Under the pieces are notes generated by a model. It had not been told where the DNA came from. It did not search any database and saw only the letters and a list, made by a program, of their open reading frames with translations. From an uncultured Clostridia bacterium (GTDB taxonomy: Bacteria > Bacillota > Clostridia > TANB77 > CAG-508), in assembly GCA_944390975.1 (NCBI GenBank), contig CALXRX010000008.1, forward strand, positions 407-64,406: 64,000 nt of DNA, given 5' to 3'. Positions 1 through 61,523 of the stretch are shown here, in pieces. Every line of letters starts with the position of its first letter. The first letter of the stretch is position 1. The translations under genes were made by a program, and so were the position numbers.

Positions 1-81
1 GTTCATTTTTCGTCATTTTATCTTTCTATTATTCTATTTTCAATAGTTTTAGCCTTTTTTAGTTATCACTTTTTTACATAA
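1..81 (-). repeat. Copy 1 (cut by the window edge) of a ~95-bp conserved cassette: hairpin terminator overlapped by a sigma-A-like promoter
   Basis: Near-identical to 3221-3314, 59203-59297 and 63401-63494, and to the diverged copy 1465-1558. Lies immediately 3' of the minus-strand ATPase gene. Confidence 0.6.
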
Positions 82-1361: not shown

Positions 1362-1390
1362 ATTATACTATCTTTTAGTATTATAGTCAA
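1362..1390 (-). promoter_or_regulatory. Sigma-A-type promoter for the ATPase gene
   Basis: Coding-strand TTGACT, 17 nt, TATAAT. The RBS AGGAGG follows upstream of the ATG at 1338. Confidence 0.55.
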
Positions 1391-1464: not shown

Positions 1465-1558
1465 AAAAAATGACGAAAACTCTTTTTCGTCATTTCGTTT
1501 TTCTATTATTCTAATTTTCAATAGTTTTAGACTTTTGTGATTATAATTTTTTATATAA
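1465..1558 (-). repeat. Copy 2 (diverged) of the terminator/promoter cassette, abutting the stop codon of paralog A
   Basis: Hairpin aatgacgaaaa/ttttcgtcatt plus a T-run on the minus strand. The remainder aligns with the other copies. Confidence 0.6.
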
Positions 1559-1565
1559 CGTTTTA

Positions 1566-3086
1566 TTAAACTTTTATTATAATTCTTCTTATATCCTGTG
1601 AAAAGCCATTAACACCATATGCAGTAAAAGTTATTGAGCCAGAGCCTGAAAATTTTATTTTCTGCACTATATATGCCCATCTCCCACTTTCTTTAGTACT
1701 AAGATTTCCACTAGATAAATTTGATATTACACTTCCTCCCGATTGAGATATAGTAGCATTTAATTTAGTAGTATCATACGTATAACCATATGAGCCTGTA
1801 TAATATGAAAGTATAGCTATATATGTTCCCGCAGATACACTTATTGTTTTTGTAGAATCGGCACCACTACTAGTATCACATGCTGTTCCTCTACTATAAT
1901 GTGATAAAGAGATACCTCTATCAACTCCTGCATTTACACCTGCATTGTAACCATTGTTATATCCTGTTTTATAATTTGTTGAATTTGCATTGGCTCTATT
2001 ATCTGCTGCTGTTACTCCAGCATTGTATCCATTAGTATAACTTGGTCTTGAGTCTAATGTTCCTCCGCTATAGTATCCTGCTGGCACTGTATATGTTGTA
2101 TTGCTTCCTGACCAATTTAAATTTCCTCTATTCGGCATTGTTCCTGTTACCTTGCTTCCATTTACCCATGCTGTATATCCATTTAATATTTGCCCTGCTC
2201 CTGCTGTTGCTGATGTTTGACTTGCTAGCGAATTTGCTGTTACTTTTCCACTTCCATTATGGTATCCTGCTGGTATTGTGTAACTTCCTCCTGCATTTAA
2301 ACTTTGGCTTACTGCTCCTCTGTTTGGCATTGTTCCTGTTAGTCCTACTTCACTTGAGTTTGAAAATGTTTTCCCACTTAATACATCTGCTAATGTTGCA
2401 TTTCCTGTTGATTGTTTCTCTTTTAAGCTTGCTATTTGTGTATTTAAATCATTTATTGTGTTTTGTTGTTGTTCTATCGTTTTATTTAAGCTATCTACTT
2501 GCTGTGTTAAGTTATCTACTTGTTCTTGTAATATTGCACTATTTCCTTGTTCTTGTTCTATTTGATTATTTAAATCTTCTATTGTTCCTTCTAGTTCTGT
2601 TTTGGTATTGTTTAGGTCTTCTACTGTTTTTTCTAGTTCTTCTACTTTTTGTTGTAGTTCTGCTAGTTCTTCATCTGTTGCTGCATCTCCTCCTGTTGTT
2701 CCTCCTGGTTTATATATTTCATCTATTTTTATTTCATAACCTTCATCTGTTTTTATTGTATTTCCATCTTCTTGTAGTTCTCCATAATTTCCTGCTATTT
2801 CTTCTAGTTCTTCCTGGGTTAGCCCTGTTCCTCCTTTTTCTAGTTCTTTATCTAATAATGCTAGTTGCATATCTTCTTTTATTGCTGCGATTTCTTGGGC
2901 TTCTTTTGCCCTCACGGCTTGGGTTATTATTCCTCTATCTCCCAAAGTTAGGCTCAAGGTCACTCCTGATAAAATTAATAATATTACTATTGTTACCACA
3001 AGTGAAACTAAAGTTATTCCTTTTGCTTGTTTTACTTGCTTTTTTCTTACTTCTTTTAAATTACTATTTCTTATTTCCTTTTTCAT
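1566..3086 (-). CDS. Paralog A of the surface-fibre family: pilin-like N-terminal segment, coiled coil, two tail-fibre-like repeats, unique C-terminal domain
   Basis: 506-aa ORF with RBS AGGAGGAAC. The basic leader is followed by KG-ITLVSLVVTIVILLILSGVTL (prepilin-like or signal anchor). Heptad-rich segment LEKTVEDLNNTKTELEGTIEDLNNQIEQEQ. Repeats GTMPNRGA..SYTIPAGYHNGSGKV and GTMPNRGN..TYTVPAGYYSGGTLD. The first ~370 aa are nearly identical to ORFs at 57619, 59385 and 61524. Confidence 0.8.
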   Translation of the reverse strand: MKKEIRNSNLKEVRKKQVKQAKGITLVSLVVTIVILLILSGVTLSLTLGDRGIITQAVRAKEAQEIAAIKEDMQLALLDKELEKGGTGLTQEELEEIAGNYGELQEDGNTIKTDEGYEIKIDEIYKPGGTTGGDAATDEELAELQQKVEELEKTVEDLNNTKTELEGTIEDLNNQIEQEQGNSAILQEQVDNLTQQVDSLNKTIEQQQNTINDLNTQIASLKEKQSTGNATLADVLSGKTFSNSSEVGLTGTMPNRGAVSQSLNAGGSYTIPAGYHNGSGKVTANSLASQTSATAGAGQILNGYTAWVNGSKVTGTMPNRGNLNWSGSNTTYTVPAGYYSGGTLDSRPSYTNGYNAGVTAADNRANANSTNYKTGYNNGYNAGVNAGVDRGISLSHYSRGTACDTSSGADSTKTISVSAGTYIAILSYYTGSYGYTYDTTKLNATISQSGGSVISNLSSGNLSTKESGRWAYIVQKIKFSGSGSITFTAYGVNGFSQDIRRIIIKV

Positions 3087-3167
3087 CCGTTCCTCCTATT
3101 TTTTCAATTACTTTTTTATTTAATTTATTCTCAATCTAAAATACATATTTTGAAAATTTTTTAAAAA

Positions 3168-3213
3168 CCGCGTAAGCGACCAAACGAGTTTCGTTAGAGA
3201 CGAGTGCGATTTG
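3168..3213 (-). promoter_or_regulatory. Conserved relatively GC-rich 5' leader element upstream of paralog A (second copy at 59128-59174)
   Basis: 46 nt with 4 substitutions between the two copies. Contains the palindrome AACGAA-A-TTCGTT (perfect in the 59-kb copy) and a direct repeat of ACTCGT. Function unknown. Confidence 0.4.
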
Positions 3214-3220
3214 TAACACA

Positions 3221-3314
3221 AAAAAATGATAAAGTTCATTTTTCGTCATTTTATCTTTCTATTATTCTATTTTCAATACTTTTGGGCTTTTTTAATTATC
3301 ACTTTTTTACATAA
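3221..3314 (-). repeat. Copy 3 of the terminator/promoter cassette, upstream of paralog A
   Basis: Coding-strand TTGAAA, 17 nt, TAAAAT. The -10 overlaps the 5' arm of the hairpin (a)atga(c/t)(g/a)aa..ttcgtcatt, which is followed by T7. Confidence 0.6.
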
Positions 3315-57618: not shown

Positions 57619-59052
57619 TTAGATTATTTTAGATGTACACCACCAAGTATACTTTCCCGAACTTCCACTACCATTAATTGAATATGTAAAAGCTGTTCCT
57701 GCTGTTGCATATTTAAAGTATATTGAAAATCTTTTTCCAGATGCAGTTCCATTTGCTGGACTATGCAATTCTTTTTTAGTTGTCCCTCCACTACAACTTG
57801 TAGTTATAGAATAGTTAGCTGAACAATCATATATGATAACAACAAGATATAAACCATTACTTGGAGCTGTTCCGCATGCTCTTGATGTTCCTAATTGTGT
57901 ATTAACATCATATTCTGCTCCAATTATACTAGCATTTGAAAAATCTAATAAAGAAGGGTTAGAATATATTGCTGATAATCCAGCATTGTATCCATTAGTA
58001 TAACTTGGTCTTGAGTCTAATGTTCCTCCACTGTAATACCCTGCTGGTACTGTATATGTTGTATTGCTTCCTGACCAATTTAAATTTCCTATATTTGCCA
58101 TTGTTCCCGTTATTTTATTTCCATTTACCCATGCTGTATATCCACTTAATATTTGCCCTGCTCCTGCTGTTGCTGATGTTTGGCTTGAAAGTGAATTTGC
58201 TGTTACTTTTCCACTTCCATTATGGTATCCTGCTGGTATTGTGTAACTTCCTCCTGCATTTAATGTTTGATTTATTGCTCCTCTGTTTGCCATTGTTCCT
58301 GTTAGTCCTACACTACTTGAGTTTGAAAATGTTTTTCCACTTAATACATCTGCTACTGTTGCATTTCCTGTTGCTTGCTTTTTCTGTAGTTCTGCTATTT
58401 GAGTATTTAAATCATTTATTGTGTTTTGTTGTTGTTCTATCGTTTTATTTAAGCTATCTACTTGCTGTGTTAAGTTATCTACTTGTTCTTGTAATATTGC
58501 ACTATTTCCTTGTTCTTGTTCTATTTGATTATTTAAATCTTCTATTGTTCCTTCTAGTTCTGTTTTGGTATTGTTTAGGTCTTCTACTGTTTTTTCTAGT
58601 TCTTCTACTTTTTGTTGTAGTTCTGCTAGTTCTTCATCTGTTGCTGCATCTCCTCCTGTTGTTCCTCCACCTTGATTATATATTTCATCTATCTTTATTT
58701 CATATCCTTCATCTGTTTTTATTGTGTTTCCATCTTCTTGTAGTTCTCCATAATTTCCTGCTATTTCTTCTAATTCTTCTTTTGTTAGCCCTGTTCCTCC
58801 TTTTTCTAGTTCTTTATCTAATATTGCTAGTTGCATATCTTCTTTTATTGCTGCTATTTTCTGGGCTTCTTTTGCATTTACTGCTTGGGTTATTATTCCT
58901 TTATCTCCTAGAGTTAGACTTAATGTTACTCCTGCTAGTATTAATAGTATTATTATTGTGATTACTAGCGAGATTAGTGTTATTCCTTTTACTTGTTTTA
59001 CTAGCTTTTTTCTTACTTCTTTTAAGTTACTATTTCTCAATTTTTTCCTCAT
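57619..59052 (-). CDS. Paralog B of the surface-fibre family (unique C-terminal ~130 aa)
   Basis: 477 aa. Same N-terminal segment KGITLISLVITIIILLILAGVTL, coiled coil and two GTM.N.G repeats as paralog A. Diverges after SRPSYTNGYNAG. Confidence 0.8.
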   Translation of the reverse strand: MRKKLRNSNLKEVRKKLVKQVKGITLISLVITIIILLILAGVTLSLTLGDKGIITQAVNAKEAQKIAAIKEDMQLAILDKELEKGGTGLTKEELEEIAGNYGELQEDGNTIKTDEGYEIKIDEIYNQGGGTTGGDAATDEELAELQQKVEELEKTVEDLNNTKTELEGTIEDLNNQIEQEQGNSAILQEQVDNLTQQVDSLNKTIEQQQNTINDLNTQIAELQKKQATGNATVADVLSGKTFSNSSSVGLTGTMANRGAINQTLNAGGSYTIPAGYHNGSGKVTANSLSSQTSATAGAGQILSGYTAWVNGNKITGTMANIGNLNWSGSNTTYTVPAGYYSGGTLDSRPSYTNGYNAGLSAIYSNPSLLDFSNASIIGAEYDVNTQLGTSRACGTAPSNGLYLVVIIYDCSANYSITTSCSGGTTKKELHSPANGTASGKRFSIYFKYATAGTAFTYSINGSGSSGKYTWWCTSKII

Positions 59053-59127
59053 CAGTTCCTCCTATTTTTTCTATTTACTTTTTTCTTTTTCTCAATCTAA
59101 AATATATATTTTGAATTTTTTAAAAAA

Positions 59128-59174
59128 CTGCGTAAGCGACCAAACGAATTTCGTTAGAAACGTGTGCGATTTGG
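59128..59174 (-). promoter_or_regulatory. Second copy of the conserved GC-rich leader element, upstream of paralog B
   Basis: Aligns with 3168-3213. The whole 5' region 59053-59297 is homologous to 3087-3314. Confidence 0.4.
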
Positions 59175-59202
59175 AGCAAGCTACATATTTTTCTTTTGAA
59201 GC

Positions 59203-59297
59203 AAAAAAATGACGAAGTTTATTTTTCGTCATTTTATCTTTCTATTATTCTATTTTCAATACTTTTGGGCTTTTTTAGTTATCACTTTTTTACATAA
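59203..59297 (-). repeat. Copy 4 of the terminator/promoter cassette, between paralogs C and B
   Basis: Hairpin at 59208-59233 with T7 on the minus strand. TTGAAA (59254-59259), 17 nt, TAAAAT (59231-59236). The -10 overlaps the 5' arm of the hairpin. Confidence 0.65.
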
Positions 59298-59384
59298 AAT
59301 TTTCTATTCTTCAAATATAATAACTAGCTTTTCCGCATTTATATCTTATAAAAGCTTTCTTTTTTTGGTTATCACCTATATACA

Positions 59385-60917
59385 TTAAAATGAAATACTT
59401 CTTGCTACCATTGCTGGTTGTTTTCCGTACGCAGATGCAGTAATTACTCCTCCTGAATTTCCTGTATATTTATAGATTTGTAATCTAACTGCTGAAGGAT
59501 ATGAAGAACCAGTAACACCATAATAATTTTCAGATACTAATGAAAGTGTTGCTGTTCCACTAGTTTTTGAAACTGATAATGTAGGATTTCCTGAAGCATT
59601 ATTATTGTTTGCAGATGCAGATACAACTAAAATTCCATTACTACCACTTAAATTTAAAGTTAATGATATAGTTGTAGTACTACTTGCCATATTTTGATTA
59701 CTATTTCCACTAGCTAAATTCGGATTTGCTTTTCCAGCAGCTACACCTGCATTGTAACCATTGTTATATCCTGTCTTATAATTTGTTGAATTTGTATTTG
59801 CTCTATTATCTGCTGCTGTTACTCCTGCATTATATCCATTAGTATAACTTGGTCTTGAGTCTAATGTTCCTCCACTATAATATCCTGCTGGTACTGTATA
59901 TGTTGTATTGCTTCCTGACCAATTTAAATTTCCTCTATTTGGCATACTTCCTGTTACCTTACTTCCATTTACCCATGCTGTATATCCACTTAGTATTTGC
60001 CCTGCTCCTGCATTTGCTGAAGTTTGGCTTGCAAGTGTATTTGCTGTTACTTTTCCACTTCCATTATGGTATCCTGCTGGTATTGTGTAACTTCCTCCTG
60101 CATTTAAACTTTGGCTTACTGCTCCTCTGTTTGGCATTGTTCCTGTTAGTCCTACACTACTTGAGTTTGAAAATGTCTTTCCCTCTAATACATCTGCTAC
60201 TGTTGCATTTCCTGTTGATTGTTTATCTTTTAGGTCTGCTATCTGTGTGTTTAAATCATTTATTGTGTTTTGTTGTTGTTCTATTGTTTTATTTAAATTG
60301 TCTACTTGTTGTGTTAGATTGTTTACTTGTTCTTGTAATGCTGCACTATTTCCTTGTTCTTGTTCTATTTGGTTATTTAAATCTTCTATTGTTCCTTCTA
60401 ATTCTGTTTTGGTATTGTTTAAGTCTTCTACTGTTTTTTCTAGTTCTTCTACTTTTTGTTGTAATTCTGCTAGTTCTTCATCTGTTGCTGCATCTCCTCC
60501 TGATATTCCTCCACCTTGATTATATATTTCATCTATTTTTATTTCATACCCTTCATCTGTTTTTATTGTGTTTCCATCTTCTTGTAATTCTCCATAGTTT
60601 CCTGCTATTTCTTCTAATTCTTCCTGTGTTAGCCCTGTTCCTCCTTTTTCTAGTTCTTTATCTAATATTGCTAGTTGCATATCTTCTTTAATTGCTGCTA
60701 TTTCCTGGGCTTCTTTTGCTTTTTGTGCTTGAGTTATTATTCCTCTATCTCCTAGAGTTAAACTTAATGTTACTCCTGCTAGTATTAGCAATATTATTAT
60801 TGTTATTACTAGCGAAATTAAGGTTATTCCTTTTTCTTGTTTTATTATATTCTTGCTCATTTTCCTTATTACCTTTATTTCATTTTTTCTTATTTTCTTT
60901 TTCATACGTTCCTCCAA
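59385..60917 (-). CDS. Paralog C of the surface-fibre family (unique C-terminal ~130 aa)
   Basis: 510 aa with the same architecture. Longer basic leader MEERMKKKIRKNEIKVIRKMSKNIIKQEKG-ITLISL. Confidence 0.8.
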   Translation of the reverse strand: MEERMKKKIRKNEIKVIRKMSKNIIKQEKGITLISLVITIIILLILAGVTLSLTLGDRGIITQAQKAKEAQEIAAIKEDMQLAILDKELEKGGTGLTQEELEEIAGNYGELQEDGNTIKTDEGYEIKIDEIYNQGGGISGGDAATDEELAELQQKVEELEKTVEDLNNTKTELEGTIEDLNNQIEQEQGNSAALQEQVNNLTQQVDNLNKTIEQQQNTINDLNTQIADLKDKQSTGNATVADVLEGKTFSNSSSVGLTGTMPNRGAVSQSLNAGGSYTIPAGYHNGSGKVTANTLASQTSANAGAGQILSGYTAWVNGSKVTGSMPNRGNLNWSGSNTTYTVPAGYYSGGTLDSRPSYTNGYNAGVTAADNRANTNSTNYKTGYNNGYNAGVAAGKANPNLASGNSNQNMASSTTTISLTLNLSGSNGILVVSASANNNNASGNPTLSVSKTSGTATLSLVSENYYGVTGSSYPSAVRLQIYKYTGNSGGVITASAYGKQPAMVARSISF

Positions 60918-61047
60918 CTTATTTTTTATTTTTTATTTTTATTATTCTCTTTTTTATATTATTTATGTACTTTATTTCAATTGTTTTTTATAGTTCATTA
61001 TAAATAATTCTTTTTTATTTTAAGATTCTTGTATACCTTACGTCGAT

Positions 61048-61076
61048 ATTTTATAATTACTTATATTACTTGTCAA
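61048..61076 (-). promoter_or_regulatory. Sigma-A-type promoter of paralog C; a homologous but weaker site lies upstream of paralog D near 63335-63365
   Basis: Coding-strand TTGACA, 17 nt, TAAAAT. The surrounding ~90 bp are conserved between 61000-61090 and 63290-63375. Confidence 0.55.
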
Positions 61077-61172
61077 GCCTTTCTATTTTTTTCTTAATTA
61101 TTTTCCACAAAAAAAGATATATATTTACTTTTTTAATATATATCTTTTTTCTATGTTATTTAATTTTAAATT

Positions 61173-61469
61173 CTATTTGCATATATTGTTTAACTTTGTT
61201 GCATCTTTGAAACCTTGTTTATAGTATTTCTTATTATAATAAGCCATTGTGATATTATAATCCATTATTAAATTTTCAATATTTGATGTTAGTTGTTTCT
61301 TTATTAGATTATATTGAGTTGGTATAGCAGATATTAATTTATCAATTTCTTCTTTTTTTATGTGTTTTACTTTATCTTTTAGTATATCAAAATCTTGTTG
61401 GATGCTTTCCAAACTTTTTTCTTCTCTATACTCAAAAACTCTATCTATTAAATCATATTCATTTTCCAT
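61173..61469 (-). CDS. Hypothetical 98-aa helical protein embedded in the paralog cluster
   Basis: ORF with its own terminator hairpin at 61111-61150. I recognise no motif. Confidence 0.5.
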   Translation of the reverse strand: MENEYDLIDRVFEYREEKSLESIQQDFDILKDKVKHIKKEEIDKLISAIPTQYNLIKKQLTSNIENLIMDYNITMAYYNKKYYKQGFKDATKLNNICK

Positions 61470-61523
61470 ACTATCACCTAATAATAGTATTAGTAGATTC
61501 TATATTTTTTATACATTTTTATT

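Follow-up and report, generated by a model that had tools for sequence, protein, structure and literature searches.

The DNA analysed here, referred to throughout as the window, is a stretch of 64,000 nucleotides (nt) from an uncultured Clostridia bacterium, corresponding to positions 407-64406 of contig C8 in an assembly (G000) of 1.68 Mb that is divided over 64 contigs and has a G+C content of 26.9%. Its relatives are uncultured gut Clostridia represented by metagenome-assembled genomes (MAGs), including a chicken MAG and Candidatus Scybalousia. The window contains paralogous genes (paralogs A to D) of a family whose products, putative surface fibres, would combine a prepilin-like N-terminal anchor, a coiled-coil stalk and a variable tip. 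Associated with these genes is a conserved non-coding block of 95 nt, hereafter called the module, and the five copies of it reported in a preliminary description of this sequence are all present at the coordinates given there. We read the module, with a probability of roughly 0.6, as the shared promoter of the fibre family, to which a terminator for the preceding gene would be fused. Copy 4, which served as the query of the genome-wide search (and is 100% identical to that query), and the features around it are as follows.

59203..59297, minus strand: module copy 4, the query copy, separating paralog C (stop at 59385) from paralog B (start at 59052)
59278..59297, minus strand: upstream box TTATGTAAAAAAGTGATAAC, about 38 nt ahead of the -35 hexamer and followed by two A-tracts (UP-like region)
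59254..59259, minus strand: -35 hexamer TTGAAA of promoter P1 of copy 4
59231..59236, minus strand: -10 hexamer TAAAAT of P1 of copy 4, the last two bases of which are the first two of the 5' arm of the hairpin
59222..59225, minus strand: predicted P1 start, at A residues 6-9 nt past the -10 hexamer (spanning the final base of the 5' arm and the beginning of the loop)
59209..59232, minus strand: hairpin with arms ATGACGAA (59232-59225) and TTCGTCAT (59216-59209) and loop AAATAAAC
59203..59209, minus strand: T-run, T7 including the last T of the arm, at which the conserved module ends
59053..59202, minus strand: leader of paralog B, of the GC-richer 'L1' type, in which neither another sigma-70-like promoter nor significant RNA structure (z=+1.08) is found
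57619..59052, minus strand: paralog B, 477 amino acids, with an N-terminal anchor (GITLISL...), a stalk of coiled-coil type and a C-terminal tip that is unique; served by copy 4
59385..60917, minus strand: paralog C, 510 amino acids; read-through from it would meet the hairpin of copy 4
59329..59391, minus strand: relic of a module, internally deleted, consisting of box-like ATGTATATAGGTGATAACC and AAGATATAAATGCGGAAAA and overlapping the stop codon of paralog C

The relic confirms the second, partial copy that had been noticed beside the stop codon of paralog C. Its local alignment score is 46, compared with 34.6 +/- 5.1 for shuffled sequences, 15 of 500 of which reach 46. The GC-richer leader element (…TCGCACACGTTTCTAACGAAATTCGTTTGGTCGCTTACGCAG…; 59053-59202 and 3087-3220) is common to about 14 units, in which it occurs in two length variants. 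Its fold is no better than that of shuffles, and a second attenuator or a riboswitch in the leader was rejected on this ground.

Distribution of the module and conservation of P1

A genome-wide alignment of the module, proposed in the preliminary description, yields about 30 copies in G000, of which 26 have the hairpin followed by T5-7 and four lack the 3' arm. The copies are 82-98% identical over the 95-nt block, and a block kept at this identity in about 30 places cannot be due to chance. The pattern TGACGAA-N-TTCGTCATTTT has 22 exact matches, while the reversed-pattern control has none. The edges of the module are sharp: in the alignment the upstream flanks are unrelated, and after TTTTTTG the copies split into at least five unrelated leader types. 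No match to Rfam was obtained at the gathering threshold anywhere in the whole window.

A module is located upstream of 13 of the 16 complete long coiled-coil paralogs, compared with 5 of 16 that have one within 300 nt downstream (Fisher p=0.011); when truncated paralogs are included, 8 of 22 tips have a module within about 150 nt downstream. Four of seven AAA_14/DUF4143 ATPase genes, one ABC ATPase gene and another, unrelated gene are also preceded by a module, and eight further modules are found where contigs end, the assembly being broken there by the repeated stalk. The module is thus associated with the starts of genes and not with the tips of fibres; a module found 3' of a tip is there because the next gene in the tandem cluster carries its own promoter. 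In the preliminary description the module was placed just 3' of the variable tips. This applies to three of the five window copies (1465-1558 after paralog A, 59203-59297 after paralog C and 63401-63494 after a truncated paralog) but not to the other two: 1-81 follows an AAA_14 ATPase gene, and the 1.2 kb upstream of 3221-3314 are free of co-directional genes. As a general architecture, the bracketing of tips that had been suggested is not supported by the count of 5 in 16 given above.

The family itself comprises 51 open reading frames (ORFs) in G000 with the prepilin-like hydrophobic anchor GITL[IV][AS]L[VI]ITII.LLILAGVT (for instance in the window at 57619-63224 and 1566-3086). They fall into a long coiled-coil class (about 22, including truncated members), a class of around 340 amino acids (about 28) and short forms of around 98 amino acids. 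No curated family model matches the fibre family, there being no Pfam or NCBIfam match at E<=0.01. When checked by eye as a prepilin, the N-terminus reads KGITLISLVITIIILLILAG, with S or A at residue +5 instead of the E of G/F-x-x-x-E. Some related tips carry the phage tail-fibre domains PF12571 and PF03406. Both ends of the 65-kb contig C8 break within fibre-gene units (window 1-81 and 63633-64000), the left end consisting of a module and leader and the right end of a stalk, so the assembly collapses at the repeated stalks; the ends could join each other or other clusters.

Among 40 relatives examined, only one genome, the congeneric G006, carries the module. At least 20 copies in G006 keep the upstream box, the -35 hexamer, the 17-nt spacer, the -10 hexamer and GACGAAAAA, which in G000 constitutes the end of the 5' arm plus the loop. 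The majority sequences of the two genomes are identical for the upstream box, TATTG-AAAT and AAAGATAAAATGACGAAAAA, with differences in the stretches between them. The -35 hexamer in G006 is TTGAAA or TTGCAA, and the spacer has kept its length of 17 nt with a diverged sequence. Most G006 copies run directly into a ribosome-binding site, without 3' arm or T-run, and 11 of them continue as GACGAAAAAGAGAGAAAAAGCAAATAGGAGG...ATG into the paralog. In these 11, only about 29 nt separate the -10 hexamer from the Shine-Dalgarno sequence (AGGAGG), so that P1 must be a promoter, with its start within GACGAAAAA. What is conserved as a unit is therefore the promoter, which G006 has kept mostly without 3' arm and T-run; the terminator is an addition to it.

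P1 of copy 4 (TTGAAA-17-TAAAAT) matches the sigma-70/sigma-A consensus at 10 of 12 positions. Promoter-like hexamer pairs on their own are not above chance at 27% G+C (52 found in 8 kb, 43 expected). Diverged G006 copies (L061-L063) keep TA[A/G]AAT and lack GACGAA, which argues for a -10 element of the sigma-A type; an alternative sigma factor recognising GACGAA (cin-box or sigma-H-like) was set aside for the same reason. An invertible promoter was also considered and discarded, since no inverted repeats flank P1. In two distant Clostridia MAGs, L008 and L014, pilin-like genes are likewise preceded by the box, -35 and -10, and in L008 the distance from box to -35 is again 38 nt. The module up to GACGAAAAA would thus be the common sigma-A-type promoter of the fibre family.

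The upstream box may be where a regulator of the pilin-like gene class binds. In the distant MAGs it reads TTTTATGTAAAAA[A/T]GT.ATA and is located at L008:3737-3830 and, on the minus strand of L014, at 1303-1180 and 258-130, directly past the terminator of the upstream gene. Of the 26 loci obtained when metagenomes were scanned with the 19-nt upstream box, none is a module, and all are chance matches in unrelated contexts.

The hairpin and the proposed double function

The hairpin has a stem of 8-11 bp with three G-C pairs, the 11 pairs being reached when the flanking A4 and T4 are included. The core has a calculated energy of -7.2 kcal/mol, which the A:U extension brings to -10.7 kcal/mol, and the whole module folds better than shuffled sequences (z=-2.35). 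In all 26 hairpin-bearing copies of G000 the hairpin is followed by T5-T7. The core hairpin is within the range of the 221 terminators predicted in G000, of which the median is -9.1 kcal/mol and 29% are weaker. The stop codon of the upstream gene is located 2-32 nt ahead of the module in about 11 cases. In the 150 nt upstream of the 24 full G000 modules, another terminator-like hairpin is absent in 20 cases and a strong one is present in a single case; in G006 the same stretch contains a strong, separate terminator for 8 of 15 hairpin-less modules (Fisher p=0.00075).

Six hairpin copies occur in G006, with loops of 8, 5 or 4 nt and unchanged arms. Variable loop length combined with invariant arms fits a hairpin and not a protein site of fixed geometry. 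One G006 hairpin copy has no promoter and is found directly after a gene, upstream of mraZ, in the position of a plain terminator. G006 also contains a family of GC-rich dispersed hairpins (GTCAGTGGGGACGGAGATTTTTGACAAGTTCAGAATTTCCGTCCC...), similar in look to repetitive extragenic palindromic (REP) elements, which form terminators about 80 nt before many modules (L046-L048, L051 and L054-L056).

In the model that we propose, the stretch from the upstream box to GACGAAAAA would be P1, the promoter of an expanded, lineage-specific surface-fibre family, shared with a few unrelated neighbours. In G000 the 3' arm TTCGTCAT and the T-run would have been added downstream, with the end of the -10 hexamer and the discriminator (ATGACGAA) becoming the 5' arm. 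Polymerases coming from the upstream gene would transcribe both arms and stop at the T-run, while polymerases starting at P1 would begin at the loop A, make only the 3' arm and continue into the leader and the gene. This promoter with overlapping terminator is the reading of the module best supported by comparative sequence evidence. The sequences show a family of repeats linked to gene starts, promoter elements kept across species, a fold like that of a terminator and the scarcity of other terminators upstream; the P1 start site, the actual termination and the bypass are all inferred from them. With the start predicted to lie in the loop, it is plausible that the module terminates incoming transcripts and spares its own. 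At least nine units contain no promoter-like site other than P1 before the gene; for these genes to be expressed at all, transcripts from P1 have to get past the T-run. The leader of transcripts initiated at P1 has no significant RNA structure when its fold is compared with shuffles. A leaderless mini-ORF beginning at an ATG in the loop (AAATGAAC) was rejected, as seven copies read ATA at this place.

The other four window copies and a second type of promoter are listed below.

1..81, minus strand: copy 1, cut by the window start and complete at C8:392-487; follows the AAA_14 ATPase gene (109-1338)
1465..1558, minus strand: copy 2, beginning 8 nt past the stop of paralog A, with the strongest hairpin (-12.6 kcal/mol)
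3221..3314, minus strand: copy 3, with P1 intact and the sole promoter candidate for paralog A
63401..63494, minus strand: copy 5, 3' of the tip of a paralog truncated by the contig end; precedes paralog D
61048..61076, minus strand: promoter P2 (TTGACA-17-TAAAAT), the predicted driver of paralog C, preceded by its own AT-rich terminator

The preliminary description attributed P1, the hairpin and a T7 run to every copy. The promoter is exact in four of the five, with the -10 hexamer overlapping the arm ATGACGAA, but has decayed in copy 2, where the spacer is 18 nt and the -10 reads CGAAAT. The hairpin is damaged in copy 3, of which the 3' arm has decayed to TTTATCAT and the fold reaches only -3.1 kcal/mol, and is found in the others; for copy 1 the missing 3' arm and T-run are found in the 15 nt before the window start. 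The T-run is present, but its length varies from T5 to T7. Copies 2 and 3 have thus decayed reciprocally. Copy 2 keeps the hairpin after a fibre gene and has lost P1, and the AAA_14 gene downstream of it is preceded by a promoter of its own (TTGACT-17-TATAAT at 1390..1362). In copy 3, which has no co-directional gene within 1.2 kb upstream, P1 is retained and the hairpin lost. This is what two separable functions predict, though it is anecdotal.

The leader of copy 5 contains a degenerate second promoter (63363..63335). Paralog C has no module upstream. Between paralogs D and C lies an ORF of 97 amino acids (61175-61466, minus strand) to which no family was assigned; after it come an AT-only hairpin terminator of its own (AAAAGATATATAT...ATATATATCTTTTTTT, 61100-61145) and then P2.

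Several observations weigh against the promoter with fused terminator. The strength of the hairpin is average to weak. The variants seen in the stem are two single G-U changes and one decayed copy, and as no compensatory double change occurs, covariation does not prove the structure. In G006 GACGAAAAA is conserved with no partner arm present, so that conservation of this arm is not explained by the hairpin; it would have some other role, as discriminator or initial transcribed sequence, or as the half-site of a regulator. Two or three of the five hairpin-bearing G006 modules also have a separate strong terminator just upstream, and five G000 modules with an intact hairpin have their nearest co-directional upstream gene more than 180 nt away.

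With the terminator placed after the promoter of the next gene, each polymerase leaving an upstream gene in the G000 lineage crosses P1 before it stops. The roughly 26 modules might then act as a transcriptional-interference relay, making expression of tandem fibre genes position-dependent or mutually exclusive, and as a portable promoter plus insulator that recruits AAA_14 and ABC ATPase genes. This extension of the model is speculative, and we give it a small chance of being correct.

Alternative roles of the palindrome and the repeat

The palindrome ATGACGAA-N8-TTCGTCAT could be an operator instead, at which a dimeric repressor covering the -10 and start of P1 silences the fibre regulon, the T-run being incidental. 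It spans the -10 hexamer and +1, the classical position for a repressor, its arms and loop are near-invariant within G000, and the half-site GACGAAAAA is conserved across species even where there is no hairpin. However, most G006 promoters possess only one half-site, and where there are two, the distance between them is 4, 5 or 8 nt depending on the copy. Moreover, the T-run is longer than the mirror image of A4 in 26 of 26 copies, and the same hairpin recurs without a promoter as a gene-end terminator. An operator is therefore considered unlikely.

The preliminary description saw in the module a stretch of non-coding homology 3' of the tip, which together with the conserved stalk would permit replacement of the tip by homologous recombination or gene conversion. 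The stalks are indeed 82-99% identical over 200 amino acids and the tips essentially unrelated; tip diversification is real. Some tips (the 8 of 22 mentioned above) are followed by a module, the relic stands after paralog C, and in the alignment module variants and leader types occur in mosaic combinations. In addition, a 172-bp direct duplication (C16:13694-13863 and C16:15246-15418) brackets an AAA_14/DUF4143 ATPase gene on another contig. It is made up of the last 40 or so nt of coding sequence, 27 nt and a whole module, and ends exactly past the T-run. Its other end lies about 70 nt upstream of the module, inside coding sequence, which indicates homologous and not site-specific exchange. 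Recombination at modules does occur, as the mosaics, this duplication and the relic demonstrate, and as would be the case for any 95-bp repeat present 30 times.

Most tips, however, have no module downstream, the module tracks the 5' ends of genes, and unrelated genes are equally preceded by it. Promoterless silent copies of tips are not found: all six candidate 'tip-only' ORFs are open to a contig end and are truncated full genes. No two tips are alike among the G000 paralogs. No exact copy of paralog B is on record, and for its C-terminal 115 or so amino acids (the tip, 57619-58060) a search of 5.8 billion clustered proteins gave no relative past the conserved junction. G006, finally, has the promoter part without any need for such a role. 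Tip replacement through the module is to be regarded as no more likely than the operator, and a recombination system of the antigenic-variation type is not currently supported.

Marginally less likely again is that the 3' arm and T-run are functionless, fixed once beside P1 and then copied in a recent amplification or homogenisation of the family. The identity of 87-98% between copies could reflect youth or gene conversion, covariation is absent, and some hairpins persist without a near upstream gene. On the other hand, the T-run marks the exact end of the conserved block, whichever of at least five unrelated leader types follows, and copy 2 has retained its hairpin even though P1 has decayed. 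The upstream genes are otherwise without terminators, and the hairpin recurs in G006 with different loops.

The hairpin and T-run might also act as a leader attenuator on the transcripts of P1 itself, provided that these start upstream of the arm or find other pairing partners and that an antitermination factor intervenes. As in attenuators, a terminator is placed between promoter and gene. P2 follows hairpin-bearing modules in G006 (L048, L049 and L064), and a P2 after the module in some units would make sense if P1 transcripts stop. Nevertheless, with the -10 hexamer overlapping the 5' arm, a start 6-9 nt downstream leaves the arm out of the transcript, and there is no better promoter upstream within the module. 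At least nine genes would have no productive promoter, and the leader contains no antiterminator alternative fold. We consider attenuation very unlikely.

That the palindrome, with its 11-bp arms and asymmetric 8-bp spacer like the cores of loxP and FRT, is the site of a tyrosine recombinase allowing integron- or shufflon-like excision and re-insertion is highly improbable, for although direct repeats bracket single genes in the C8 and C16 clusters and sharply bounded modules are joined to many leaders, none of the eight tyrosine recombinase genes (PF00589) is located on contigs C8, C16, C25, C26, C57 or C61, the spacer is not fixed (4, 5 or 8 nt), the C16 duplication reaches well into coding sequence and the rest of the module is plainly a promoter.

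Three other classes of repeat were rejected. DNA uptake sequences paired into terminators are of the Neisseria/Haemophilus type (PMC1852404); ATGACGAA occurs 88 times against 47.5 expected, but around 52 of these occurrences come from the modules themselves. An integron attC site has no adjacent integrase to support it, and its spacer would not be fixed. For a Correia-like element or another miniature inverted-repeat transposable element (MITE), the ends TTATGTAAAA... and ...CGTCATTTTTTG are not inverted repeats, the flanks are unrelated and there is no target-site duplication.

Comparison with known systems

The nearest known precedent for a promoter with fused terminator appears to be found in Escherichia coli K-12, in which, as Grundstrom and Jaurin reportedly described in 1982, the terminator of the frd operon overlaps the promoter and leader of ampC. 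In both cases the preceding unit ends at a terminator that is located past the promoter of the downstream gene, and one hairpin with its T-run serves two units. The ampC hairpin, however, lies wholly in the ampC leader and attenuates ampC transcripts. In the module the -10 hexamer is in the 5' arm and the predicted start in the loop, so its own transcripts should escape, and there are about 26 copies.

In Borrelia burgdorferi, each of the ospE/ospF/elp (erp) paralogs is preceded by a conserved non-coding promoter block, the upstream homology box (UHB), which has been discussed as a substrate for recombination. The resemblance, a conserved promoter block preceding variable surface-protein paralogs, is an analogy only; the UHB has no built-in terminator and belongs to plasmid-borne lipoprotein genes. 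Antigenic variation of pilE/pilS in Neisseria involves a conserved Sma/Cla repeat 3' of the pilin loci. As in the tip-replacement proposal, a variable 3' coding part is positioned there between conserved coding sequence and a downstream non-coding repeat. In contrast to that system, the module is not accompanied by silent promoterless donors, tracks the 5' ends of genes and is missing 3' of most tips. Correia elements and other MITEs are short repeats, dispersed between genes, which bring with them promoters and terminator-like hairpins. The module is likewise a dispersed repeat with both of these, but is tied to particular gene families and, in G006, continuous with their ribosome-binding sites.

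Two further comparisons concern starts inside structured sequence. In Bacillus subtilis, mRNA isoforms made from sigma-B and sigma-A promoters form RNA structures that depend on the start site (PMC8208050). In both systems the point at which a transcript starts, ahead of the structure or within it, would determine if the structure forms; in B. subtilis it controls the translation of one gene, whereas the module would decide on termination by the origin of the transcript. For the AT-rich minimal genome of Mesoplasma florum, mapped start sites are reported that sometimes overlap predicted terminators (PMC7745072), which documents that starts can fall in terminator sequences of compact AT-rich genomes. 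The overlap is mentioned there in passing, as a curation problem and not as a conserved multi-copy module.

Judged from its sequence, the module is an ordinary family promoter with an unusually economical, lineage-specific terminator apparently fused to it, a compact variant of ordinary gene punctuation. If this is true, it would be a natural case in which a single stretch of 30 nt terminates incoming transcripts and is invisible to transcripts that start inside it, replicated about 26 times. It would then bear on the insulation of tandem paralogs in compact, very AT-rich genomes and might provide a ready bifunctional part for synthetic biology. The upstream box and P1 together would constitute the cis-regulatory signature of a large, uncharacterised family of prepilin-like fibres in uncultured gut Clostridia, and may be used to find its regulon and its regulator.

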